Shown here: positions 2,972 to 41,500 of the stretch, piece by piece | Layout of the letters: each line of letters begins with the position of its first letter | Position numbering within the stretch: the first letter of the stretch is position 1 | DNA from: an uncultured bacterium | GTDB taxonomy: Bacteria; Abyssobacteria; SURF-5 | Assembly: GCA_964607485.1 (NCBI GenBank) | Contig: CAZSKP010000009.1 | Span: 32,001 to 96,000 of the forward strand | Direction of reading: 5' to 3' | Length of the DNA stretch: 64,000 bases | Notes under the pieces: generated by a model | What the model was told of the DNA's origin: nothing | The model's database searches: none | Seen by the model: the letters and a program-made list of their open reading frames with translations, nothing else | Made by a program: the position numbers and the translations under genes

Positions 2972-3703
2972 GACCCCGCGCTCCCGGCTTCGAGCGCGGC
3001 CGTCTGCGAGCGGACCAACCGTCGAATGCCATCCTGCGCGAGGTCGAGCAGCTCGTCGAGGAGCTTTCTCTCGAACGGGTCCTTTTCAGCGGTGGCCTGA
3101 ATCTCGACAACCCTTCCTGCTTGCGTCATAATCACGTTGAGGTCCGCCTCCGCCCGCGAGTCTTCCTGATAGCACAGGTCGAGCATCGGAATCAACTATG
3201 CCCACGCTGGTGGCGGCCACGACTTCCCTGATGGGCATCGAGTCGATTCCGTTCGACTCGATGAGCCACGAGAGAGCGTCGTGCAGCGCGACGAACGAGC
3301 CGGTGATCGCGGCGGTTCGCGTGCCGCCGTCTGCCTGGAGGACATCGCAATCCATCTGAATCGTCCGCGAGCCCAGGGCCGAAAGGTCCACCACGGAGCG
3401 CAACGTGCGTCCGATAAGCCTCTGAATCTCGAACGCGCGCCCCGATGCGCCCCGGCCGATGCGGGTCTCGTTCGAGCGGGGGAGCATCGCATACTCGGCG
3501 GTTATCCATCCCTTGCCCGAACCCTCCAGAAAAGGCGGGACCCCTTCCCCGACGGAGGCGTTGCACAGGACCCGAGTATCGCCGATTTCAATCAGCACGG
3601 ACCCTTCGGCGTACTTTGTGAATCCTCTCCGGATGACGACGGGCCGCATCTCGTTCCACCGTCGCCCGTCCGGCCTGAGAATGTGCGTGCGATCATCCGC
3701 CAC
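2968..3703 (-). pseudogene. rph: Ribonuclease PH, frameshifted near 3190 (true lesion or assembly error)
   Basis: N-part RPDGR...AEGS...[12 protein letters not shown]...[11 protein letters not shown] in ORF 3086-3703; C-part [19 protein letters not shown]...EIQATAE in another frame (2968-3195). Confidence 0.85.
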
Positions 3704-5123
3704 TGGGAACTTCCTCGGGTTGCGGCTGCTGCTCAGTCTCGGGAGCTGTCGTATCGGGGAGAGCCTCGACAGGCGCTGTGTCCGTCGACGTGCCGGAGGA
3801 AACCTCCTTCGGCTCCTCCTTCGCGGTGGTCTCGATCTGTTTTTTCGCGACGTTTATGTTCTGTTCGATTGTCTTGAAGATGTCGTACCCCTGAAGCAGC
3901 TCTACCGCCCGTTCGAGCTGAATGTCCGTTGCCTCAGGCTTTTCCTGGCCGGCGCCGACCGTGCCGGGTATGGTCATGCCGCTGAGGAGGTGGGCAAGCT
4001 GTTCCTTGCTCATCTTCACGACAATATCCGGAGTGATGCCGACCCCGTTTATGGAATGGCCGTTCGGGGTGAGATACTTCGCCGTGGTCAGACGAAGGGC
4101 CGAACCGTCGGACATTGGGATTATGCTCTGAACCGAGCCTTTCCCGAATGTCTTCTCGCCCAGGATGACTGCCCGATGCCAGTCTCTGAGCGCGCCCGCC
4201 ACAATTTCCGACGCGCTGGCGCTGCCCCCGTTCACCAGCACGACGATGGGCGTACTTGGATCGACCGTCGCGTCGCGCTTCGCCTTGAATCTCAGACTCT
4301 GGTCGGGGTGGCGAGACTCGGTGTAAACGATGAGCTGGCCTTTCTCGAGAAATTCGTCGGCCACGTCGGCGGCCACGTTGAGCAGTCCGCCGGGATTCGT
4401 GCGAAGGTCAAACACGAGCGACCGCATCCCCTTGGCCTTCAGGTCCTCTATCGCCTCGTGGAGCTCGGTCCCGGTCTGTTCGCTGAACTCGCGAAGGCGG
4501 ATGCGCCCGATGGAGTCGTCGAGCATATCCCACTTGACGCTCCGGATCTTAATGTCGTCGCGAACCAGCGTGAACTCCAGCTCTTCCGGAACGTTGCCGT
4601 CGTTTTCGTGAAGCCTGAGAACGGAAATGGTGACCTTTGTGCCTTTCGGACCCCGAAGTTTCTTGACAGCCTCTTCGAGCACCAGTCCCGTTGTGCTCTC
4701 CCCGTCGATCTTTATGATTTTGTCGCCCGCCTGCACGCCGGCTTTGAACGCGGGGGTGTCCTCGATGGGCGAGACGACGGTGAGCACCTTGTTTTCGTCG
4801 AGGCTGATGACGATTCCCAGCCCGCCGAAGTGTCCCTCGGTCTCGACCTTGAGCTCCTTATAGACATCCGGGGGCATGAACTGGCTGTGGGGGTCGAGTC
4901 CGTCCAGCATTCCCTTCAGCGCGTCGTATATCAGCGTTTGGGTGGAGACTTCCTCCACATATTCGCTCTGCACAATGCTGAGGGCGTCGGAGAAAAGCTC
5001 GAGGTCGTTGTATGTCGAGCCGGTCTGAGCCGCGACGTAGCCGGACAGGCTGTTGCCTATGATGAGGCCCAGCGTGAGAACCGACGCCAGAAAAAGGAAA
5101 AACTCACTCCGATTGCGTTGCAT
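3693..5123 (-). CDS. ctpA: Carboxyl-terminal processing protease (S41A, PDZ)
   Basis: N-terminal hydrophobic segment, [38 protein letters not shown]. Confidence 0.95.
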
Positions 5124-7137
5124 GTATATTCCTCCTTTGAAGCCAAACAGCAGGGTCGACGGGGTCTCCGTGTTCCCTTATTTCAAAATACAGAAACGGG
5201 CCCTTCAGCGAACCGGTTTCGCCCACGAGCGCTATGGGTTGGCCACCCTTCACATGGTCTCCTTTCCTCACGAGAATCTCGGAGCAGTGCGAATATATGC
5301 TGTTATACCCGTCGCCGTGGTCGAGAATCACGAGCTTGCCATATCCTCTGAACCAGTCGCAGTAGGCGACAATCGCGTCGTGGATGGCGCGGATTTGCGA
5401 GCCCACCGAGCCCGAAATATCGACGCCAAGGTGCCTGGTGAATGTGCCCGAGTCGGGATTTCGCACCCTGCCGAATGGAACCGTTATTTCGCCCTCGGTC
5501 GGCCAGGGGAGCAGCCCCCTCATTTCCCCGAACGGAACCGCGCCCGTGAGTGCGGGCTGCGCCTCCGCCCGTTGCTTTTCGATAAAATCCTGCAGGTTAC
5601 GAGCCGAAGCCTCCAGGTCGGTTATCGCGGCCAGATAGATATTCTTCTGTTCCCTGAGCTTCGTCAATATGACTTCGCGCTGTCTCTTCTTCTCCACAGC
5701 CTGCTGAGCGCGCAATTTCGCGGCCTCGGTATAAAGCGTATCCAATTCGACGCGCTTACGCAAGGTTTCCTGTTGCTCCAGATAGGTCCTGCGAAGCCCC
5801 TCGGCCCGCTCAAAGGTCTCGGCCTCCTTCTCCGCCAACAGTGAGAGCATTCGTCGACGCCTCGTGATCTCGGATTGGGGAATATCGCAGAGTATGACCT
5901 CGACCAGAGACGGTTCCCGTTGATTGCACAGAAGCCTGAGCCACTGCTCGAGCTCCTGCCGCGAGCGTACATACAGCGTCTCACACCTGCCGAGTTCGGC
6001 CTGCGCCATCCCGATCGCCTCTTTGTTGGCTGCAATATTCGCTTCGCCCGTCTTGATTTCACGGGCAAGGCTGTCTATTTCCTTGTCTCTCCCCTCCAGG
6101 TCGTCTATTATCGCGCGTTCCTGCTGGCCGAGTTTTTCGGCGGCGGCCATGCTCTGTTGCAGGTCGCGTTCGAGCCGCTTCAGTTCCTGTTGATACTTGA
6201 CCAGCTCGGACTCCAAGTCCTCATCGGCGCGGACCAGACTCCCGGCCGGCCACGCGGCGAGCAGGACCGCGAGCGTCACTACGAGCACGTTTCGAAGCGA
6301 AAACCAGCTTGCCATGAGCGCCAGAGCCGGGCCGACGGCAAAGGCCGCCCCCACCAGTCCCAGGGGGAGCCGAAGCGTCTCGCCCATCCTGTTCGAAAGC
6401 AGCGCGGCCGTGACTGCCAACGCGCCGACGCCGACGGCCGACCCGCACATGCCCTGCGCAACACCCTCCACTGCGAAGACGCGGCGAATGAACTTTGTGC
6501 TCGCGCCCAACATGCGAAGCGTGCGTATCTCGCTTTTGCGGGCGGTCGAGGCGAGCCTCGCTATGTTGACCGTGATTATTCCGAACGCCAGGATCCAGAA
6601 AATGCTCGTCCCGGCCGCAAATCCGGCCATTTCCCGGCGAAATTGCAGGTATCGCTCGAGCATCGTTTCCTCGAACCGTACCTCGTCCACCCCCTTGATC
6701 GAAGCAACCCGCGAGGCCACCCGCCTGATGACGGAGAGGTCCCGGTTGCCCTCGACAAGCCTTATCACAATCGAAGGGGGCAACACCTCATCGAGCGGCA
6801 CCTCGCCCAAGTCGAGCGAATCGCCCGCTTCGGAGAAGAGTTCTTCCCACGATTGCTGGCCGCTGACCAGTCTCGCGTCGCCCACCTCGTTGATGGAGCG
6901 AACGTCGTCGAGCACCTTCTGCGGGCTCTGCGCCTCCGGCCCGCGGGAAAGAAAGGCGACCAGCTCCACCCTGCTCTCCCATTTCTTGAGCAGAGAATTC
7001 ACGTTGAGGACGAGGAACGCAAACGCCCCCATCGCAAACACGGCGACCGCCACGCATCCGGCCATGGCCAGGCTAAGAGTGCGCGCCCGCCGGAAATTCC
7101 GAAGCCCTTCCCTAACGGCGAGGTTGTATCCCTCCAT
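5104..7137 (-). CDS. FtsX permease fused to EnvC-like coiled-coil/degenerate LytM (M23) protein
   Basis: aa 1-~282 FtsX-like (RKSEIRTLRMLGASTKFIRRVFAVEG); hydrophobic linker; coiled coil; C-terminal M23 (LPWPTEG, HLGVD, GYGKLVILDHG, GPFLYFEIR); position between ftsE and ctpA. Confidence 0.88.
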   Translation of the reverse strand: MEGYNLAVREGLRNFRRARTLSLAMAGCVAVAVFAMGAFAFLVLNVNSLLKKWESRVELVAFLSRGPEAQSPQKVLDDVRSINEVGDARLVSGQQSWEELFSEAGDSLDLGEVPLDEVLPPSIVIRLVEGNRDLSVIRRVASRVASIKGVDEVRFEETMLERYLQFRREMAGFAAGTSIFWILAFGIITVNIARLASTARKSEIRTLRMLGASTKFIRRVFAVEGVAQGMCGSAVGVGALAVTAALLSNRMGETLRLPLGLVGAAFAVGPALALMASWFSLRNVLVVTLAVLLAAWPAGSLVRADEDLESELVKYQQELKRLERDLQQSMAAAEKLGQQERAIIDDLEGRDKEIDSLAREIKTGEANIAANKEAIGMAQAELGRCETLYVRSRQELEQWLRLLCNQREPSLVEVILCDIPQSEITRRRRMLSLLAEKEAETFERAEGLRRTYLEQQETLRKRVELDTLYTEAAKLRAQQAVEKKRQREVILTKLREQKNIYLAAITDLEASARNLQDFIEKQRAEAQPALTGAVPFGEMRGLLPWPTEGEITVPFGRVRNPDSGTFTRHLGVDISGSVGSQIRAIHDAIVAYCDWFRGYGKLVILDHGDGYNSIYSHCSEILVRKGDHVKGGQPIALVGETGSLKGPFLYFEIREHGDPVDPAVWLQRRNIHATQSE

Positions 7138-15785: not shown

Positions 15786-17783
15786 TCAATCTCCGTACAA
15801 GTCCCTGATCGGGCCGAGCAGGCCAAGAGCCTCAAGCCGCTCCCTCTTGGGAACGCCCGTTTCGTAGTCCCAGCCGAGCTTGTCGTAGTATCGCGACGCC
15901 ATCTTGTCGAGGTCGAGCGTGATATTCGCCAGAGGCCCCTTGCTCAGAGGAGGATAGCCGCCGGCCCTGTTCCTTATCTGCGTGTCGGCGGGCTTTATGC
16001 CCTCGCGGACGTTGAAGCAATGTCTGAGGGTGAGTATCCTCTCTCCGATTCTGAGGGCTTCGTGCGCGTCGATGCTCCAGCCGGTCACCGCGTTTATCAT
16101 CTCGAACAGCGGGTATTCGCCCACGAGCAGCCCGAACATGCAGACGCCGGCGCTGTTGGCGACCTGGACGAACGCGCTGTTGATGGTCTGGAACTCGCCC
16201 GCCTTGTCATAGTTGTACTTCGACGATTTCAGCGATACCTGCTTGACGGGTTTGACTTGCTTGAACTTCTTGTGAAGCTCCATCAGCATGACGTACGTGT
16301 CGGAGGAAATGGTGTGCCGGCCGGGGGTCGGCTCCACCTCGTATGCGGTGCCGAAGGTGGGGTCGAACCGCGGATCGTGCATCGGCAGCTCCTGGCCGCC
16401 CGCATGGACGGCGAACTTCTCGGAGCCCTTCCCTATCTTTTCCGCCGCACGCTTGACGCCGTCGGCCAGAACGTCGCCGAAGCCCGACCGCGCCGCCAGT
16501 TTCTCGGTCATCTTGACGATGGCGTCGGCGTTGCCCCAGGTCAGCTTCAGGCCGTCCGTGTCCTCGTCGGTTAATAGTCCGTTCTCGTAACATTCGATGG
16601 CAAAAGCGATCGTCGCGCCGGCCGAGATGGTGTCCAGCCCGGCTCGGTTGCATATCTCGTTGGCCGCGATAATCGATTCGAGGTCGTCGTTCAGGCACAT
16701 CGTCCCGAACGCAGCAAGGGTTTCATACTCGGGCTTGTGGCTTTCCTCAAGGGCATACTTGCCCTCCTTCACCTTGACGATGCCGCCGCAGCCGAGCGGA
16801 CAGAACGCGCAGTAGTACTTCTTCTCCTGATACTTTATGAGATTCTCGTCGCTGATCTTGTACGATTTGGCGCTGACGGGAAAATCGTGGTGACCGCTTC
16901 CGCCCCAGTTTTTCACGGGTGAGTCGCCGCTTTCTGCCGAGTAGGCCGTCATGCCGCCCGTGCCGTAGCGCATGATGAGTTCCTTGTACGTCGCCGGCGG
17001 CGTGGCGAAGAGGAACGGGAAATAGCTGCGCACGAGCTTTCCCATGAGGTTGATGTTGTCAACCGATGCCTTGTCTTTGAACGGCGGCTTCTTTCGGAAT
17101 TTCTCCAGGTAACTCTTGCGTATCTTCGAGAACGCATCCGGGTCGGCCAGTTCGGTCTTCTTGTCGCCGAAAGCCGCAATGGCCTTGAGCCGCTTCGAGC
17201 CCATGACCGCGCCCAGGCCCGAGCGTCCTGCCGCCCTGCCCCTGTCGGTTATCACTCCCGATATAAGCGAGAGCTTCTCGCCCGCGGGACCGATGCAGGC
17301 GATCTGGTACTTCTTGTTGCCCAATTTCTCGCGGATAAGGACCTCGGTCTCGACGCAATCTTTTCCCCAGACGAACGACGCGTCCACAAGCTCGGCCTTG
17401 CCCTCGTTGATGACGAGCATCACGGGCTTTTCGGAAATGCCCTTCACAAAGACGGCGTCGTAGCCCGTGCGCTTGAGCATCGGCGAGAAATAGCCGCCCG
17501 AGTTGGAGTCACCCCATGTGCCCGTGAGCGGCGATTTGCCGACGACCATGTACCTGCCCGTGAACGGAGCTCCCGTGCCCGTCAAAAGGCCGGTCGTGAA
17601 GCCGATGACCGCGTCGGGGCCGAGCGGGTCGGTCTTGGCGGGCTGGCGGTCGTACACGATTTTCGCGCCCAGCCCGTAGCCGCAGAGAAAGTCGCGATAG
17701 GTGAGTTCGTCTATTTCCTCATCCCATATCTTGCCCGTGCTCAGGTCGGCCCACAGCACCTTTCCCATATATCCGGAAGGCAT
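15786..17783 (-). CDS. aor: Aldehyde:ferredoxin oxidoreductase family (W/Mo bis-pterin)
   Basis: KSPLTG, SGGYF, AGRSGLGAVMGSKRLKAI, CAFCPLGC, PEYET, GLDTIS, HDPR. Confidence 0.92.
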   Translation of the reverse strand: MPSGYMGKVLWADLSTGKIWDEEIDELTYRDFLCGYGLGAKIVYDRQPAKTDPLGPDAVIGFTTGLLTGTGAPFTGRYMVVGKSPLTGTWGDSNSGGYFSPMLKRTGYDAVFVKGISEKPVMLVINEGKAELVDASFVWGKDCVETEVLIREKLGNKKYQIACIGPAGEKLSLISGVITDRGRAAGRSGLGAVMGSKRLKAIAAFGDKKTELADPDAFSKIRKSYLEKFRKKPPFKDKASVDNINLMGKLVRSYFPFLFATPPATYKELIMRYGTGGMTAYSAESGDSPVKNWGGSGHHDFPVSAKSYKISDENLIKYQEKKYYCAFCPLGCGGIVKVKEGKYALEESHKPEYETLAAFGTMCLNDDLESIIAANEICNRAGLDTISAGATIAFAIECYENGLLTDEDTDGLKLTWGNADAIVKMTEKLAARSGFGDVLADGVKRAAEKIGKGSEKFAVHAGGQELPMHDPRFDPTFGTAYEVEPTPGRHTISSDTYVMLMELHKKFKQVKPVKQVSLKSSKYNYDKAGEFQTINSAFVQVANSAGVCMFGLLVGEYPLFEMINAVTGWSIDAHEALRIGERILTLRHCFNVREGIKPADTQIRNRAGGYPPLSKGPLANITLDLDKMASRYYDKLGWDYETGVPKRERLEALGLLGPIRDLYGD

Positions 17784-27831: not shown

Positions 27832-28019
27832 CTTTGTATATCATATCCCCCGAAAACCTGTCAAGCATTTTTTTCCAAGACAGGCTGCGCCCTCATGCCC
27901 CGCAGGAGAGACGCCCGAACATCGCCCGCATATTGACAATCCGCCGGCCCAGCGACAGAATTAGAAAAAGAGAACGTGGCAAAACACCTTCGGGCACAGG
28001 GAAGGAAGGAGGAATACGA

Positions 28020-28427
28020 GTGGGAAAACTGACGGAGGATATCAAGCATTTCCTTGAAGAAGGCCGGCTGGCGTATGTGGCCACGAGCAGCAGCGATGGC
28101 GTGCCCAACGTCGTGCCGAAAGGGTCGCTGGGCGTGCTCGACGACGACCACCTCGTGTTCGCCGACCTCTATTCTCAGAAGACGCGGAAGAACATCGAGG
28201 CGAACCCGCATGTGGCCGTCGCGGTCGTGAACCCGCCCGCATACCAAGGATACCAGTTCAAGGGAAAGGCGGAGATTCTGGATTCGGGGCCCGCATTCGA
28301 GCGGGCGACCGAAATCGTCGATTCGATAAAGATGGACCCGTCGAAGGTCAAGTATGCGGTGGTGATAACGATAGAAGAGATATACGACCTCGCTCCGGGA
28401 CCGAAATCGGGTAAAAGAGTCGCGTGA
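28020..28427 (+). CDS. Pyridoxamine 5'-phosphate oxidase-like FMN-binding split-barrel protein
   Basis: YVATSSSDGVPNVVPK, KTRKNIEANP, GYQFKG; AGGAGG SD before GTG. Confidence 0.85.
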   Translation: MGKLTEDIKHFLEEGRLAYVATSSSDGVPNVVPKGSLGVLDDDHLVFADLYSQKTRKNIEANPHVAVAVVNPPAYQGYQFKGKAEILDSGPAFERATEIVDSIKMDPSKVKYAVVITIEEIYDLAPGPKSGKRVA

Positions 28428-28488
28428 TGCAAGGCGCGTCGAGCAAAAGACCGGTTGTCCCTTGAACCGGATTGATAAGGAGGCCACC

Positions 28489-28920
28489 ATGAACCAGAGA
28501 GAAGCGAAGAAAAGGGCTCGCAAAATAGTGAATGCCGCCGAGGTGTTTGTGCTGTCAACCGTTGACGGCCGCAACCGTCCGCAGAGCCGCTTCATGGGCG
28601 CAAAGCTGGTTGACAAGGGCATGACCATATACATGGAAACCTATGCCCGCTCGAGGAAGGTGAGACAGATAAAGAAGAATCCGCGCGTCCAATTGCTGTT
28701 CGCGACGAAGAATTATTCAGAAGTTGTCACGCTTTCGGGAAAGGCGTCGATGGATAAATCGGTGGACGTCAGAAAGCGCATCTGGAAGGAGAATCCGGCT
28801 TCGGCAGAATATTTCTCCGGGTATGACGACCCCGCCCTCGGCTTGATCAAATTCAAGCCGGAACGGCTGGAATATTACGGGCCGTCCACCGGATTGGACA
28901 TCATTGAGATAAAGCTGTAA
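28489..28920 (+). CDS. PNPOx-like / general stress protein family
   Basis: LSTVDG..PQSRFM, SRKVRQIKKNP, YFSGYDDP; AAGGAGG SD. Confidence 0.82.
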   Translation: MNQREAKKRARKIVNAAEVFVLSTVDGRNRPQSRFMGAKLVDKGMTIYMETYARSRKVRQIKKNPRVQLLFATKNYSEVVTLSGKASMDKSVDVRKRIWKENPASAEYFSGYDDPALGLIKFKPERLEYYGPSTGLDIIEIKL

Positions 28921-28935: not shown

Positions 28936-29385
28936 TCAACTGATATGCTTCTCCACCAGTTCCTGCAGTTCACGCTTCGGTAGCGCGCCGACCGCCTGTT
29001 CGGCGGGCCGTCCGTCTCGAAACACGATGAGCGTGGGCGTCGCCGTGATTCGGTACGTTCTCGCGCTCTCGGGACTGCTTTCGACATCCAGCTTGCCCAC
29101 CTTTAGCCTGCCCTTATACCGCGAGGCGACGGCCTCAAGCGTCGGTTCCAGGGATCTGCATGCGCCGCACCACGTGGCGAAGAAATCCACGAGCACCGGA
29201 ACATCAGCGCCCAGCACCTCGTCGGCAAACGTGCCGTCGCTCACGCTGAGCGGCCTGTCGGAGGTAGACCCGCGCGGCTCCAGCGTAGCCGAACATTTCC
29301 CGCAGACCGGCTGTTCCCGCTTCTCGCCGTCGAACCGATTGACCGAGCCGCATTGGCGGCATTTGACATAGAGGATTTCGCTCAT
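28936..29385 (-). CDS. trxC: Thioredoxin with N-terminal zinc-binding CxxC pairs (TrxC type)
   Basis: CRQC...CGKC, DFFATWCGAC, TPT cis-Pro region. Confidence 0.85.
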   Translation of the reverse strand: MSEILYVKCRQCGSVNRFDGEKREQPVCGKCSATLEPRGSTSDRPLSVSDGTFADEVLGADVPVLVDFFATWCGACRSLEPTLEAVASRYKGRLKVGKLDVESSPESARTYRITATPTLIVFRDGRPAEQAVGALPKRELQELVEKHIS

Positions 29386-29588
29386 TTTTCACGGGGCACA
29401 TACGTGAGCACGCGAATGATTCCCATCGTCGAGCCGTCCACATTGGCCGTCGTCGCGTCGGACACCGAAATGACCTTTTTCACGTCGTTCTCGGCGATGA
29501 AATCGTTAACCTGTTTGTCCAGGCCGTCGAGCTCCTGAGTAATGTGGAATATCTTGAACTGCGACCCGAACGTCTTCACCTTTACCAT
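29382..29588 (-). CDS. Small hypothetical protein (68 aa)
   Basis: MVKVKTF...LDKQVNDFI...VISVSD...IIRVLTY; GGAGG SD; ATGA overlap with trxC. Confidence 0.7.
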   Translation of the reverse strand: MVKVKTFGSQFKIFHITQELDGLDKQVNDFIAENDVKKVISVSDATTANVDGSTMGIIRVLTYVPREK

Positions 29589-29724: not shown

Positions 29725-29765
29725 GTGTATATGTGGACACCTTTCCACCTATAGCGGAACCGAAA

Positions 29766-30131
29766 ATGACCACCACCACTCCTAAACGCAGGAAACTGCG
29801 GGATGCGTCGGCGGACGACGTCCAGTATTGTCACGACTATTTCGAGCAGCTCTTCCGCACGAACTTTTTCAAGTGTCTCAACGATGAGACGCGGCAGAAA
29901 ATCATCCTGCTGACCGGCCTCGCCGGCGAGGAGGGGATGTGCGTCGCGGAAATCGCCGGCCACTTCAACCTCGACAGGACCACCGTATCACATCACCTGA
30001 CAATGCTGCGCAACAACAACTTGCTTGAAGTGACCAAGCGGGGCAAGGAAAGGTATTACCGGATGAACGTCGATTACGTGATAGGCGCGGTCGAAGAGGT
30101 CGCGAGGATACTCAAAGCCTGCTGCAAATGA
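29766..30131 (+). CDS. ArsR/SmtB family metalloregulator with C-terminal CC
   Basis: FKCLNDETRQKII, MCVAEIA, TVSHHL, GKERYY, ends KACCK; start could be 29733. Confidence 0.9.
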   Translation: MTTTTPKRRKLRDASADDVQYCHDYFEQLFRTNFFKCLNDETRQKIILLTGLAGEEGMCVAEIAGHFNLDRTTVSHHLTMLRNNNLLEVTKRGKERYYRMNVDYVIGAVEEVARILKACCK

Positions 30132-30153: not shown

Positions 30154-31743
30154 ATGTCCTACATCTTCATGAAAATACTCGAACGCAAGCCGGCGACATA
30201 CGACGCCGGAATCGCCAAATACGCCGCCGGCGACTTCGCCGAAGTGCGCGACGAGATGCTTTCGCTCGTGAGCCCCGGCGACCGCGTGCTCGACGTGGGG
30301 TGCGGGCCGGGCGCGTTCGCAGTCGAATGCGCAAAGAGGGGCGCGCGGGTCGATGCGGTCGATATCAATCCGCAGATGCTCTACGTCGCCGACCTGGCAG
30401 CAAAGAAGGCAGGGGTCGAGAACAAAATAACGTTTCAGCATGCATCCGCAACCGACGTCGAGGCCGACCGCGGCGCATTCGACCTCGTCGTCTTTTCTCT
30501 CTCGATGAGCGAGCTCAGAGAGGTCGAGCAGTGGATCGCCATGCATTCCGCGTTCGATTTCTTGAAACCGGGCGGAAGGCTCGTGGTGGCCGACGAGGTC
30601 GTTCCGCAGGCGTTCGCGCAGAGGACGTGGTACCATCTCCGCAGGCTGCCGCTTCTCGCGATAACGTACCTGATAACGCGGACGACCACACGGCCCGTTC
30701 GTGAAATGGAAGAACGGTTTCGCGCGTGCGGCTTCGAGGTCGAGCGGACCGAGGCATATGAACGCGGCAGCCTGAAGCTCGTCGTCGGCCACCGCATGGA
30801 GCGGAGACCCGCGCCGGAGGTCTTATCACCGGACAGGCTGCCGCGATGGGTCGAGACGCTGGGCAAAATTTACAGCTACCTCACGCTGGCGTTCAATGAT
30901 GTCCCCATACGAACCGGCCTGTATAAGTTCGGCAATCCCACGGGGGAATCGCCGGTGCTCGTGACCGCAAACTATCTCTTGACCTTCACGTCGGTCAAGA
31001 AGCATCTCCGGGGGCTGGATTGTTATCTGCTCGTCGTCGATACGCGCGGAATCAATGTGTGGTGCTCGGCGGGGAAGGGCAACTTCTCGGCCGAGGAGAT
31101 TCATACCTCCTTGCGCGCGACACGAGCCGAGGATGTTACCGAAACGCGCAAGCTGATCCTGCCGAAGCTCTCGGCCAACGGCGTCAAGTACCGCGATGTC
31201 GAAAGGCTCAGCGGCTGGAAGGCGGCATTCGGCCCCGTGTATGCGCGGGACATACCCGATTACCTGGCCAACGGCTTTGCCGAGGGCGAACGGATGAAGC
31301 GGGTGAGGTTCGAGCTGGCCGACCGGCTTTGGGTCGGCCCGCCGTTTGCGCTGTTCGTGGCCTTCTGGTTCCTGTTGCCACTGCTGATTTTCCACAGCTT
31401 GTATTCTCCCGCGATCCCGGCCATTGCGCTCGCGGCCGGCCTCATCTTTCCGGCCGCGTTCTATATCCTGCCGACGGACCAGTTCTTCAAGAAAGGGCTG
31501 GTTCTGGGGCTTGCGGGAGCGGTAGGAGCGGGCATCTTGCTGCTCGTTGCGGGCGCGCCAGCCAAGGACATAGTCCAGTGGGCGCTCATCATAGTCGGCG
31601 TCACGATGTTCGTGGCGATAGACTTCTCGGGAATGTCGCCGGTGAGCAATTACAGCAAAATAAGGGAGGAGTATTACGTCGTCCTTCCCTTGTTGGTGTT
31701 GATAGTGATAAGCTATATAGTAGTGAGTTATCTGTGGAGGTGA
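30154..31743 (+). CDS. hgcA: Class I SAM-dependent methyltransferase fused to HgcA-type corrinoid membrane protein
   Basis: aa 1-~215: VLDVGCGPG, AVDIN, FDLVV, LKPGGRLVVAD; aa ~245-400: GLYKFGNP...SPVLVTANY...DTRGINVWCSAGKG (Cys304)...LILPKL...GPVYARD; C-terminal multi-TM region. Confidence 0.85.
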   Translation: MSYIFMKILERKPATYDAGIAKYAAGDFAEVRDEMLSLVSPGDRVLDVGCGPGAFAVECAKRGARVDAVDINPQMLYVADLAAKKAGVENKITFQHASATDVEADRGAFDLVVFSLSMSELREVEQWIAMHSAFDFLKPGGRLVVADEVVPQAFAQRTWYHLRRLPLLAITYLITRTTTRPVREMEERFRACGFEVERTEAYERGSLKLVVGHRMERRPAPEVLSPDRLPRWVETLGKIYSYLTLAFNDVPIRTGLYKFGNPTGESPVLVTANYLLTFTSVKKHLRGLDCYLLVVDTRGINVWCSAGKGNFSAEEIHTSLRATRAEDVTETRKLILPKLSANGVKYRDVERLSGWKAAFGPVYARDIPDYLANGFAEGERMKRVRFELADRLWVGPPFALFVAFWFLLPLLIFHSLYSPAIPAIALAAGLIFPAAFYILPTDQFFKKGLVLGLAGAVGAGILLLVAGAPAKDIVQWALIIVGVTMFVAIDFSGMSPVSNYSKIREEYYVVLPLLVLIVISYIVVSYLWR

Positions 31744-31748
31744 CGGTA

Positions 31749-32006
31749 ATGATAGCGCTGGATCGGGAAAAATGTGTAGGCTGCGGCGATTGCGCGAACG
31801 TCTGTCCGCAGCAGTGCTACACAATGGGCGACGACCACAAGAGCGTGCATGCATTCCCCGACAGATGCATGGAGTGCGGCGCATGCAGCCTCAACTGCCG
31901 CGCGCAGGCCATCTCGATGGAGGCCGGGCCCGGCTGCATCGTTTACATAATAAAGGAACAGCTGTTCGGCAAAACCGCCGCGGCGGACAGCGAGACCTGT
32001 TGCTGA
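31749..32006 (+). CDS. hgcB: HgcB-type 2x[4Fe-4S] ferredoxin (85 aa)
   Basis: CVGCGDCANVCP, CMECGACSLNC, GPGC, C-terminal CC; GGAGG SD inside the end of hgcA; ATG 5 nt after hgcA stop. Confidence 0.9.
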   Translation: MIALDREKCVGCGDCANVCPQQCYTMGDDHKSVHAFPDRCMECGACSLNCRAQAISMEAGPGCIVYIIKEQLFGKTAAADSETCC

Positions 32007-32051: not shown

Positions 32052-32642
32052 ATGAAGCGTATCGTGAGCGTCGATACCGCGCGGCCCGACAGGGTGCCGC
32101 CCGGTCAGAGGGTGATAGAACGGTTCCCGGTGCTCACCCACGGCTCGACGCCCCAGACGGACCTGAAGCGATGGAGCTTCAGGATATTCGGACTTGTCGA
32201 AAAGGAAGTTACACTCTCCTACGAAGATTTCATGTCGCTGCCCAAGGTTGAGGTCCGCGCGGATTTCCACTGTGTGACCACGTGGAGCCGGCTCGACAAC
32301 CTGTGGGAAGGCGTCTCCTGGAGCGAGCTGCTCTCGCTCGTCAATCCGCTTGATACCGCAAAGCACGTGATGATCCATTGCGAACAGGGCTACACGACGA
32401 ACGTCCCCCTGGCCGACATGAACCGTGAGGACGTGCTGTTCGCCTACAAACACGACGGTGAGGAACTCACTCCCGACCACGGATGGCCGCTCAGGTCGAT
32501 CGTGCCCGCGCTGTATGCATGGAAGAGCGCGAAGTGGGCGCAGGGCGTCGAGTTCATGGAGGAAGAGCGGCCCGGCTTCTGGGAGATGCACGGCTATCAC
32601 ATCCACGGAGACCCGTGGAAAGAAGAACGCTACAGCGAATAG
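32052..32642 (+). CDS. Sulfite oxidase-like molybdopterin oxidoreductase (YuiH/MsrP family, no export signal)
   Basis: RVPPGQ, DFHCVTTWS, YTTN, HGWPLR, YAWKSAKW, GFWE..GYH..GDPW. Confidence 0.9.
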   Translation: MKRIVSVDTARPDRVPPGQRVIERFPVLTHGSTPQTDLKRWSFRIFGLVEKEVTLSYEDFMSLPKVEVRADFHCVTTWSRLDNLWEGVSWSELLSLVNPLDTAKHVMIHCEQGYTTNVPLADMNREDVLFAYKHDGEELTPDHGWPLRSIVPALYAWKSAKWAQGVEFMEEERPGFWEMHGYHIHGDPWKEERYSE

Positions 32643-40485: not shown

Positions 40486-40726
40486 TCGACAGCCTGACCA
40501 GCGCTAAATCCATTCACAGCAAATATTTGCGTCTGTTTACCTTAAGTTGCTCTTGTTGAATGTTCGGCGGTCGAATGGAGTTTTTTGCCGCCCCAAGGTC
40601 AGGTAATTTCCCCCTCCTCACTGTCGGGCAAGCAGGATCGCACTTTGGAACTTGGATTCGGCCGTGGTAGAATCTCATGGTTACATTGAATCGCGCGATG
40701 GGGACACGGGGCGAGGGTATTCGCTT

Positions 40727-41500
40727 ATGCAGTATCTGTTCGGTGATTCAGACCTGGCCGCGTACCGGCTTAAGGTTCTGGCCGATGTGTACGCCGAATC
40801 GACCAGGAATTTTGTTCTCGATGCGGTCATCGAAAGGCCGCGTCTGGCCGTGGATATGGGCTGCGGGCCGGGTTATACGACACATCTGCTGGCCGGCCTG
40901 CTTCAGTGCGAACGCACCGTGGGGTTTGACAGCTCGGAGCATTTCATATCACTCGCTCGGAAAACGGAAACGGACGCACTGTCTTTCCGGCTCCATGATG
41001 TCACATCGGTTCCATTTCCCGTGGGACCCGCCGACCTCCTCTTCTGCCGGTTCCTGCTGACCCACTTGAGAGACCCGCAGGCGGTCGTCGCGAGATGGGC
41101 CACGCAACTGGCGCCGAAAGGGCTCCTCCTGATGGAGGAAGTGGAGTGGATACACTCGCAGAATCGGGTGTTCCGCACGTACCTCAACATTGTCGAGGCC
41201 ATGCTGGAGCATAAGTCGGGCAGGCTGTACGTGGGCCAGACCCTCGACCGACTCAGCGACGACAGCGCCTTTGAACGAAGGATAAGCCAGGTGGTCCGTC
41301 TGCGGGTGTCGAACCGCGACGCGGCAACGATGTTCTATCTGAATATCCGGACATGGAAACTCCAGCCCTTCATCAGGACAAATTATCCCTCCTCGATGAT
41401 TGAACAACTGGAAGAAGACTTGAAGACCCTCGCCGGGAGGCGGGACGATGCGAGCGAGATCGAGTGGGGCATGAGACAAATCGTCTTTGAAAGAACATGA
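40727..41500 (+). CDS. Class I SAM-dependent methyltransferase
   Basis: DMGCGPG, GFDSS, RFLLTHL, LAPKG. Confidence 0.85.
   Translation: MQYLFGDSDLAAYRLKVLADVYAESTRNFVLDAVIERPRLAVDMGCGPGYTTHLLAGLLQCERTVGFDSSEHFISLARKTETDALSFRLHDVTSVPFPVGPADLLFCRFLLTHLRDPQAVVARWATQLAPKGLLLMEEVEWIHSQNRVFRTYLNIVEAMLEHKSGRLYVGQTLDRLSDDSAFERRISQVVRLRVSNRDAATMFYLNIRTWKLQPFIRTNYPSSMIEQLEEDLKTLAGRRDDASEIEWGMRQIVFERT

Follow-up and report, generated by a model that had tools for sequence, protein, structure and literature searches.

The corrinoid protein HgcA and its ferredoxin partner HgcB, described in Pseudodesulfovibrio mercurii ND132 and Geobacter sulfurreducens (families NF040863 and NF040864), methylate mercury. 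HgcA carries a cap helix with a conserved cysteine, of the type NVWCSAGK, and five transmembrane helices. The adjacent HgcB has two [4Fe-4S] clusters, a cysteine some 13 residues past the second of them and a C-terminal CC. An ArsR-like gene can lie upstream, and in 2024 S-adenosylmethionine (SAM) was reported to methylate the corrinoid of true HgcAB in vitro (PMC11588087). The HgcAB-like proteins (NF043039) join corrinoid protein and ferredoxin in one chain and go with a stand-alone methyltransferase, CpaM (NF043040); fused HgcAB genes of this kind are known from Pyrococcus furiosus, OP8 and OP9 (PMC4646819). More distant is the large subunit of CFeSP, the corrinoid iron-sulfur protein (AcsC/CdhE), a corrinoid carrier with a homologous B12 domain (PF03599) and a separate methyl loader, the methyltetrahydrofolate (methyl-H4folate) methyltransferase. 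Finally, the AdoMet domain of the methionine synthase MetH is a SAM module fused to a cobalamin domain; it puts a methyl group on reduced cobalamin, a step for which a small redox protein supplies the electron. Here, we analyse a stretch of 64,000 nucleotides (the window: positions 32,001 to 96,000, forward strand, of contig CAZSKP010000009.1, assembly GCA_964607485.1) from an uncultured bacterium of the GTDB lineage Abyssobacteria, SURF-5. It encodes a CpaM domain and an HgcA-like corrinoid protein in a single chain, followed by an HgcB-like ferredoxin. We think, with moderate confidence, that these parts form a three-module, membrane-anchored methyl-transfer machine and a conserved sister group of HgcAB, in which a methyl group would pass from SAM to a Co(I)-corrinoid and on to a thiophilic acceptor.

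The locus has the same three modules as the HgcAB-like and CpaM systems, joined differently: methyltransferase with corrinoid protein instead of corrinoid protein with ferredoxin. Its features, in window positions, are these:

29733..30131, forward strand: ArsR/SmtB-family regulator (NF033788, Pfam HTH_5)
30154..31743, forward strand: CpaM-HgcA-like fusion gene, 529 amino acids (NCBIfam matches, AlphaFold2 model)
30157..30792, forward strand: CpaM-family class I SAM methyltransferase domain, residues 2-213 (NF043040, Methyltransf_25)
30793..30858, forward strand: inter-domain linker, residues 214-235, 22 residues without cysteine, between the two profile matches
30859..31314, forward strand: HgcA-like corrinoid-binding domain, residues 236-387 (HgcA_corrinoid, HgcAB_like, Pfam CdhD)
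31048..31080, forward strand: cap helix GINVWCSAGKG, residues 299-309, with Cys304 as presumed lower-axial cobalt ligand
31315..31737, forward strand: five-helix transmembrane domain, residues 388-528 (hydropathy scan, DSSP on the AlphaFold2 model)
31749..32006, forward strand: HgcB-like 2x[4Fe-4S] ferredoxin, 85 amino acids (HgcB NF040864 below its cut-off, Fer4 families)
32052..32642, forward strand: molybdopterin-binding oxidoreductase domain protein, 196 amino acids (PF00174, 149.8 bits)

An earlier reading of the bare letters (the original prediction) had claimed an uninterrupted open reading frame joining a methyltransferase to an HgcA-type corrinoid protein. The sequence bears this out: the frame holds 529 codons plus a stop and zero internal stops. 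The landmarks named at that time are also in place, namely VLDVGCGPG at codon 45 (nucleotide 30286), LKPGG and an acidic residue after strand beta2 (D70) in the first half, and GLYKFGNP...SPVLVTANY and the cap helix in the second, with Cys304 encoded by TGC at 31063-31065. The multi-pass C-terminus consists of five helices, both in the hydropathy scan (about residues 392-527) and by DSSP (H388-412, H420-435, H444-465, H470-492 and H500-528). Only 22 nucleotides separate the ArsR stop from the fusion gene, and the separate hgcB-like gene, with its two [4Fe-4S] motifs, indeed follows the fusion stop after 5 nucleotides. The fusion protein has five cysteines in total (50, 59, 192, 290 and 304). 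Its AlphaFold2 model, built on an alignment of 45 fusions, has a mean pLDDT of 92.0 and a pTM of 0.87. Strands and helices alternate in Rossmann fashion over residues 44-214, then come the corrinoid domain and five long helices; in the linker region (211-240) the block-mean pLDDT is at least 91. Since the pTM is high for a three-domain chain, the model suggests that the domains stand in a defined arrangement.

The original prediction had pointed to a resemblance of the N-terminus to CpaM, and this was correct. Residues 2-213 match NF043040 with 245.9 bits (cut-off 180, E 2.8e-73) along profile positions 1-215 of 216, and the domain scores 248.8 bits in the genome-wide profile scan. It thus combines a full-length profile match, the SAM motifs and, in the form of an in-frame fusion, joint encoding with an HgcA(B)-like protein. 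The Pfam family Methyltransf_25 spans residues 45-141 and the other Pfam matches are generic class I methyltransferase families. Eight residues (E10, G49, G51, D70, D110, E120, G141 and E148) are invariant across the 45 fusions; G49 and G51, from the class I SAM motif VLDVGCGPG, and D70 are invariant in eight stand-alone CpaMs as well. The nearest solved folds found by Foldseek, after the computed model 9a0b_A, are the generic SAM methyltransferases RebM, MitM, TleD and Coq5. The pipeline PGAP already names some of the fused proteins CpaM (P0040, P0057). In the literature we found the acronym in unrelated uses only, and neither the phrase 'corrinoid protein-associated methyltransferase' nor a statement that CpaM is a functional partner of HgcA-like corrinoid proteins; the Haft and Gwadz preprint on HgcA does not mention CpaM.

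The original prediction proposed looking for the same fusion in other genomes, and it turned out to be widespread. A search of 5.8 billion clustered proteins returned 157 relatives, 78 of which (P0005-P0082) were scanned against NCBIfam. In 72 of these 78 homologue clusters, which come from independent assemblies, CpaM (at least 180 bits) and an HgcA-like domain lie in one chain. The remaining six comprise two with CpaM slightly below its cut-off, three with the HgcA-like part only and one with the CpaM part only; these last four are probably truncated, since they are shorter and come from short contigs. The fusions fall into four groups. The first includes 18 clusters with 66-91% identity to the window protein, labelled Hydrogenedentota, Poribacteria and Abyssubacteria (the closest named homologue, at 77%, is labelled Hydrogenedentota). 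The second has 21 clusters at about 40% identity. The third, of about 21 clusters and about 536 residues, is labelled Anaerolineae, has a corrinoid part nearest to HgcAB_like and lacks a ferredoxin. The fourth consists of 12 triple fusions with a ferredoxin (582-596 residues), which score 333-381 bits over the whole HgcAB_like profile. A HMMER scan of 1.84 billion representatives at 50% identity gave 306 proteins at E<=1e-30, including about 25 further clusters colinear over both halves. Among the 11 species genomes of the window's GTDB phylum, CpaM exceeds its cut-off in four, always in a fused frame, and the arrangement seen in the window, with a separate ferredoxin gene, occurs in three genomes besides that of the window. 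The contig scan of genomes gave only three relevant loci, and the metagenome scan returned mostly true hgcA and generic methyltransferases, with L018 as the sole full-length fusion; in L038, a separate CpaM frame overlaps an HgcA-like frame. Hence, the architecture is not unique: it is found in dozens of clusters and several phyla, some of them already labelled CpaM.

These data also bear on whether an assembly error or a frameshift has joined two separate genes. The existence of a separate paralogous CpaM gene in the same genome would agree with such an error. Yet, it would have to recur in the 72 clusters, in the further colinear clusters and in the three other genomes of the phylum, and to yield a linker that is modelled with confidence. 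The junction itself was checked against contigs that two further samples of this study yielded, which cover 30747-30897 and 30829-31075 with zero differences; all runs belong to this one study, and the window may derive from the run that spans the stretch entirely. With independent homologous fusions and contig coverage of the junction we rule the artefact out, as close to impossible.

An indication that the methyltransferase and the corrinoid protein work together comes from the same genome (4.70 Mb, 97.5% complete), which has no HgcA above the cut-off and carries a bona fide HgcAB-like and CpaM pair on another contig (C2, locus L012):

L012 5228-6382, reverse strand: HgcAB-like fusion, 384 amino acids
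L012 6379-7044, reverse strand: stand-alone CpaM, 221 amino acids, whose stop overlaps the HgcAB-like start

The CpaM scores 291.6 bits. The HgcAB-like protein scores 465.3 bits and has the cap helix GVNVWCAATGG and a C-terminal ferredoxin without the cysteine tail. If M stands for the methyltransferase, A for the HgcA-like protein and B for the ferredoxin, the modules are joined as M-A + B in the window, as M + A-B on contig C2 and as M-A-B in the 12 triple-fusion clusters. Three arrangements of the same parts make a Rosetta-stone pattern, which argues that M, A and B work together. On this strong comparative evidence, CpaM is probably a functional partner of HgcA-like and HgcAB-like corrinoid proteins.

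A predicted complex of the C2 HgcAB-like protein with the C2 CpaM as partner and SAM, modelled without cobalamin, agrees with this. Its interface score (ipSAE) is 0.70 (0.70, 0.69 and 0.72 in the individual runs), with 0.00 for the best of three controls. Of the solved complexes, 58 of 80 reach this mark, as do 2 of 110 mismatched pairs; these counts are only rough here, as we supplied our own alignments and included a ligand. At least 51% of contacts are shared between runs, with a pLDDT of at least 75 for the partner. Confident contacts link CpaM residues 72, 74-75, 98-102 and 124-130 to the corrinoid protein's helix that comes right behind the cap-helix Cys75 (residues 83-94); in the window protein the equivalents are about 71-74, 97-101 and 122-128 against 312-323. 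From motifs alone, we place the contacting CpaM residues in loops that follow beta2, beta3 and beta4, on what we presume to be the SAM face; the strands concerned carry D71 and the invariant S121-E122. The prediction thus supports a binding of CpaM to the HgcAB-like protein with its presumed SAM side facing the corrinoid site. The idea that the methyltransferase loads the corrinoid, put forward in the original prediction, is consistent with both the fusion patterns and this predicted interface beside the cap helix.

Is the fusion protein then an HgcA? The pair might be a working mercury methylase, i.e. a true and functional HgcAB with a built-in SAM-loading domain. We think this somewhat unlikely, and the evidence is divided. 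The cap helix NVWCSAGK (residues 301-308) fits the HgcA pattern N(V/I)WC(A/S)(A/G/S)GK and belongs to the six hgcA motifs that PMC10087281 rates as 'high-stringency', as does the CMECGA of the neighbouring ferredoxin among the hgcB criteria; G299, N301, W303 and C304 are invariant in the 45 fusions. The five transmembrane helices are also those expected of a methylase. Against it, residues 236-524 match HgcA_corrinoid (NF040863) with only 228.3 bits (E 1.3e-67, cut-off 275), whereas the 54 true unfused HgcAs score 380-452 bits on this model and 173-224 on HgcAB_like. All 72 fusions stay below the HgcA cut-off (best 237.7 bits). The cap-helix lysine is replaced by glutamate in 10 of the 22 members of the window's own clade, whereas GK is kept in at least 79 of 100 plain HgcA-type sequences. 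Most HgcAs carry an N-terminal CC/CU motif according to Haft and Gwadz; in the window protein this motif is not present, and the N-terminus is the CpaM domain. This 213-residue domain is itself a difference from the true HgcAs, as CpaM matches (E<=1e-25) were found in none of the 54 proteins above the HgcA cut-off (66 proteins scanned).

Nor is the protein a regular HgcAB-like fusion. Its corrinoid region scores 218 bits on HgcAB_like (NF043039, cut-off 285; profile positions 10-282 of 350), and its ferredoxin is a separate gene. Bona fide HgcAB-like proteins show the pattern opposite to that of true HgcAs, with high HgcAB_like and low HgcA scores, and the group of the window has near-equal, sub-threshold scores on both. 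More distant matches are the Pfam family CdhD (PF03599; residues 254-370, 57.1 bits against a gathering threshold of 24.8, E 1.7e-15) and the CFeSP large subunit 4djd_C (E 6.3e-10 in the PDB sequence search). The top Foldseek match of the fusion model, 9a0b_A, is a computed HgcAB model (Cooper et al.), and no solved HgcA structure was found in PDB by sequence search or Foldseek. The claim of an HgcA-type corrinoid module stands for the HgcA-like domain with its cap helix and transmembrane region; it does not stand for membership of HgcA proper, given the scores below both cut-offs and the position outside the true-HgcA clade. By profile and tree, the module is best described as HgcA-like.

For that tree, the corrinoid and transmembrane region was cropped from 210 proteins, of which a 62% identity threshold left 124 representatives. 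The final 82 rows are all 46 representatives other than plain HgcA types, 32 of the 78 plain ones (16 chosen, 16 random) and four extra members of the window's group. The careful tree (IQ-TREE, LG+C20) is unrooted, and supports are given as ultrafast bootstrap/SH-aLRT. The true HgcAs, 33 rows, group together in one clade (100/99) on a stem of 0.88. The window protein lies outside it, in a clade with four close relatives (99/98) that joins the fusions of about 40% identity (94/87, 94/89); a different fused group comes out as sister to true HgcA (84/91). At its deepest split, the tree divides into an HgcA side and an HgcAB-like side (91/88). The window clade stands on the HgcA side, i.e. opposite to the HgcAB-like proteins, which speaks for a mercury methylase; the exclusion from the true-HgcA clade speaks against it. 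In the HgcA tree that the original prediction had proposed, the domain is thus on the HgcA side and does not group within true HgcA. A quick tree concurs on the true-HgcA and window clades.

The unrooted tree nests true HgcA among lineages linked to CpaM, a pattern that bears on what HgcAB evolved to do. A quick tree rooted with CFeSP (five sequences, 169 columns) gives a basal polytomy whose first branch is a long-branch fusion pair, and the root is not on the true-HgcA stem. A loss of CpaM on the HgcA stem is a reasonable inference from this, not a result. The metagenome loci served as an independent check: a CpaM-like frame of at least 100 bits is found in 0 of 33 loci classed as true HgcA (the best have 48 and 57 bits), and a CpaM is present in 7 of 7 loci whose corrinoid module was classed as not true HgcA (five fused, two adjacent). 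This check used our own profiles, our own 100-bit threshold and flanks of at most 4 kb, many contigs being short. One might speculate that the fusion with its ferredoxin is an active, self-sufficient SAM:metal(loid) methyltransferase that represents the older state of the family, true HgcA being derived by loss of CpaM and retention of SAM as donor. We find this proposal unlikely. If true, Hydrogenedentota, Poribacteria, Abyssubacteria and Anaerolineae (little-known anaerobic lineages, with labels from public databases) would make up a guild that produces methylmercury or methyl-metalloids and has gone unrecognised, and the fusion would show where and how SAM reaches the corrinoid.

Some proteins in these sets are of interest in their own right. 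P0170 (477 residues, 447 bits) and P0236 (621 residues, 419 bits) are true HgcAs with N-terminal extensions of about 160 and 290 residues, which have no CpaM match at E<=1e-25. P0228 (415 residues) is an HgcA-ferredoxin fusion inside the true-HgcA clade with its tail cysteines kept, and seems to be an A-B fusion of independent origin, separate from the HgcAB-like family. P0093 and P0102 (about 350 residues, one labelled Nitrospirota) are unfused HgcA-like proteins below both cut-offs (160-171 and 137-151 bits) on a long branch adjoining the fused groups, and may represent one more divergent lineage that has no methyltransferase domain. In the metagenome locus L019, a generic methyltransferase-like frame (3653-4564, forward strand) overlaps the 5' end of a true-type HgcA gene (4336-5559, forward strand). 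It scores 48 bits on our custom CpaM profile and tblastn matched the locus to window residues 36-514; it may be a different methyltransferase beside hgcA or a frameshifted fusion.

The HgcB hallmarks are a cysteine about 12 residues past the second cluster motif, a C-terminal cysteine (PMC7305189) and the motif C(M/I)ECGA (PMC10087281), and in ND132 both Cys73 and Cys94/95 of HgcB are reported as needed for methylation (PMC7305189). The window ferredoxin scores 77.2 bits on HgcB NF040864, below the cut-off of 99, and has these hallmarks all the same: two CxxCxxCxxxC motifs, CMECGA, an ETCC end and tail cysteines at +13, +34 and +35 after the second cluster motif (Cys63, Cys84 and Cys85). An equivalent of Cys73 and a C-terminal CC are thus retained, as one would expect of a methylase, whereas tail cysteines after the second cluster are missing in 16 of 17 triple fusions and in 7 of 16 A-B fusions. 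The gene is found downstream in both orthologous loci that extend that far (76-78% identity); across three orthologous sequences, the CC tail occurs in two and the GPGC cysteine in all.

The regulator is likewise conserved. It matches NF033788 with 67.8 bits (cut-off 55) in addition to HTH_5 and has 132 residues from a GTG start, the true start being likely M12 at 29766. An ArsR gene lies directly upstream of the fusion gene in the three orthologous loci (61-74% identity), and its cysteines, in FFKC and in a C-terminal (A/S)CC(K/R), are kept in four of four sequences. Such a cysteine set could bind a soft metal(loid), as in ArsR/SmtB sensors. A preprint reports for ND132 that hgcAB is co-transcribed with an ArsR-like gene located upstream of it, which responds to arsenic and S-adenosylhomocysteine, and this shared arrangement also fits a mercury methylase. 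These neighbourhood comparisons cover close orthologous loci.

We can now spell out the cycle that we favour. The HgcB-like ferredoxin would reduce the corrinoid held by Cys304 to Co(I). The fused CpaM would bind SAM and pass its methyl group to Co(I), giving methyl-Co(III), if the flow runs in this direction. The methyl group would then go to a thiophilic acceptor presented by Cys63, Cys84 and Cys85 of the ferredoxin at the membrane face, and the ArsR-type repressor, with its three conserved cysteines, would control the operon. Candidate acceptors are Hg(II), As(III) or another soft metal(loid); mercury methylation by the fusion system is possible but unproven.

Several observations weigh against this scheme. 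Foldseek and the PDB sequence search gave zero methyltransferases known to act on a corrinoid, and the literature search zero biochemistry for any CpaM or CpaM-fused protein. The complex was predicted for the paralogous C2 pair and not for the window protein, without cobalamin, and its score is the model's own confidence. One of the three orthologous ferredoxins (in L014) lacks the CC tail, and no ars or mer genes were found within about 15 kb of the fusion locus. Purified true HgcAB uses SAM in the absence of CpaM (PMC11588087), hence the family does not strictly require a dedicated loader. Organisms whose HgcAB-like genes are fused were reported to produce no methylmercury in culture (PMC4646819, PMC10087281), which counts against a mercury methylase too.

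CpaM could also have a lesser role. The activation domain of methionine synthase uses SAM and an electron to re-methylate oxidised cobalamin, and CpaM might similarly be a repair module acting on Co(II), the routine methyl donor being another one, e.g. methyl-H4folate from the Wood-Ljungdahl pathway. A ferredoxin and a SAM domain are exactly the parts needed for such a step. The pathway seems to be a family trait: a CFeSP large subunit lies beside an acetyl-CoA synthase-sized frame on another contig (C60, L013 3686-5086, forward strand, 590.8 bits) and the gene is present in nine of nine other genomes of the same family, for which reason the organism is probably an anaerobe with a Wood-Ljungdahl pathway. 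Cobalamin methyltransferases are also known to require reductive reactivation (PMC11588087). Against repair, the operon shows no gene for a methyl-H4folate:corrinoid methyltransferase, true HgcAB has SAM as its catalytic donor in the same report, and the 1:1 and triple fusions suggest a methyltransferase that acts in every turnover. We therefore consider a repair role quite improbable. The MetH analogy itself has limits: both proteins hold a SAM-binding module in one chain with a cobalamin domain, but fold and family of the two SAM modules are unrelated, and MetH only repairs where we propose methylation in each turnover. The same can be said of CFeSP, with which the fusion shares a corrinoid carrier and a separate loader. 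There, the loader is a TIM-barrel folate enzyme instead of a Rossmann-fold SAM enzyme, and the window carrier is membrane-anchored, has a Cys-on cap helix and coexists with a separate true AcsC in its genome.

The system might even run in another direction, i.e. dehalogenate or demethylate halomethanes or methylated compounds, with a methyltransferase that acts on a different small molecule. Heterologous HgcAB was reported to dechlorinate CCl4 besides methylating mercury (2026 preprint). Yet, such a reaction has no need of a SAM domain, the predicted interface sets the presumed SAM face against the corrinoid domain, and the cysteine tail of the ferredoxin and the ArsR gene point to a soft metal(loid). 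This direction seems to us very improbable, and methyl transfer from SAM by way of the corrinoid remains the reading we prefer.

Part of this system was already known: CpaM and HgcAB_like exist as NCBIfam models and PGAP puts the CpaM label on fused proteins. What is new is the assignment, by profile match, of the extra domain to the CpaM family of SAM methyltransferases, the placement of the M-A + B form in a separate clade beside true HgcA, and the three-way fusion pattern with two arrangements in one genome and a predicted docking surface. The texts of McDaniel 2020, Gionfriddo 2020 and Podar 2015 speak of no methyltransferase that is fused to hgcA-like genes or lies beside them, a comparison that does not extend to their sequence lists or to Hg-MATE. 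A 2025 survey (PMC12953829) describes, in a model of a Hydrogenedentes HgcA, an 'additional globular domain' (five strands, six helices) and calls its function unknown. That protein has the cap-helix motif, five transmembrane helices and an extra domain that would fit a class I methyltransferase, and we infer that it belongs to the CpaM-fused family. There, it was counted as HgcA.

These results are useful for two questions: how the HgcA corrinoid gets methylated, and which metagenome 'hgcA' matches are real methylators. On the first, the accessible text of PMC11588087 names no SAM-binding site in HgcAB. A SAM domain fused to, or encoded beside, the corrinoid protein provides a concrete model for its methylation by SAM, and the predicted docking surface next to the cap helix could be tested by mutagenesis. 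On the second, hgc surveys accept one of six cap-helix motifs together with a neighbouring C(M/I)ECGA ferredoxin (PMC10087281). The window pair passes both tests and is not a true HgcA, hence such genes can inflate or mislabel counts of methylators, and the 2025 survey appears to have counted one of them.

The rest of the neighbourhood seems less tied to the fusion. The molybdopterin-domain gene starts 45 nucleotides after the ferredoxin gene and may be co-transcribed; we set it aside as a fourth component, as the orthologous loci L014 and L016 show no counterpart of it. Further away, the window encodes a stand-alone class I methyltransferase (40652-41497, forward strand; Methyltransf_11/25) and an aldehyde:ferredoxin oxidoreductase (15789-17783, reverse strand), for neither of which a link to the fusion was seen. 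Just upstream of the locus lie two PNPOx-like flavoprotein genes (27834-28424 and 28462-28917, forward strand), the first of which is kept beside L014 and L016 (69-81% identity), and a thioredoxin gene (28939-29385, reverse strand) with an N-terminal CxxC...CxxC extension. Between thioredoxin and ArsR there is a frame of 68 codons (29385-29588, reverse strand) with no Pfam match, which is probably a real conserved small protein since it is about 81% identical in L014, L015 and L016.

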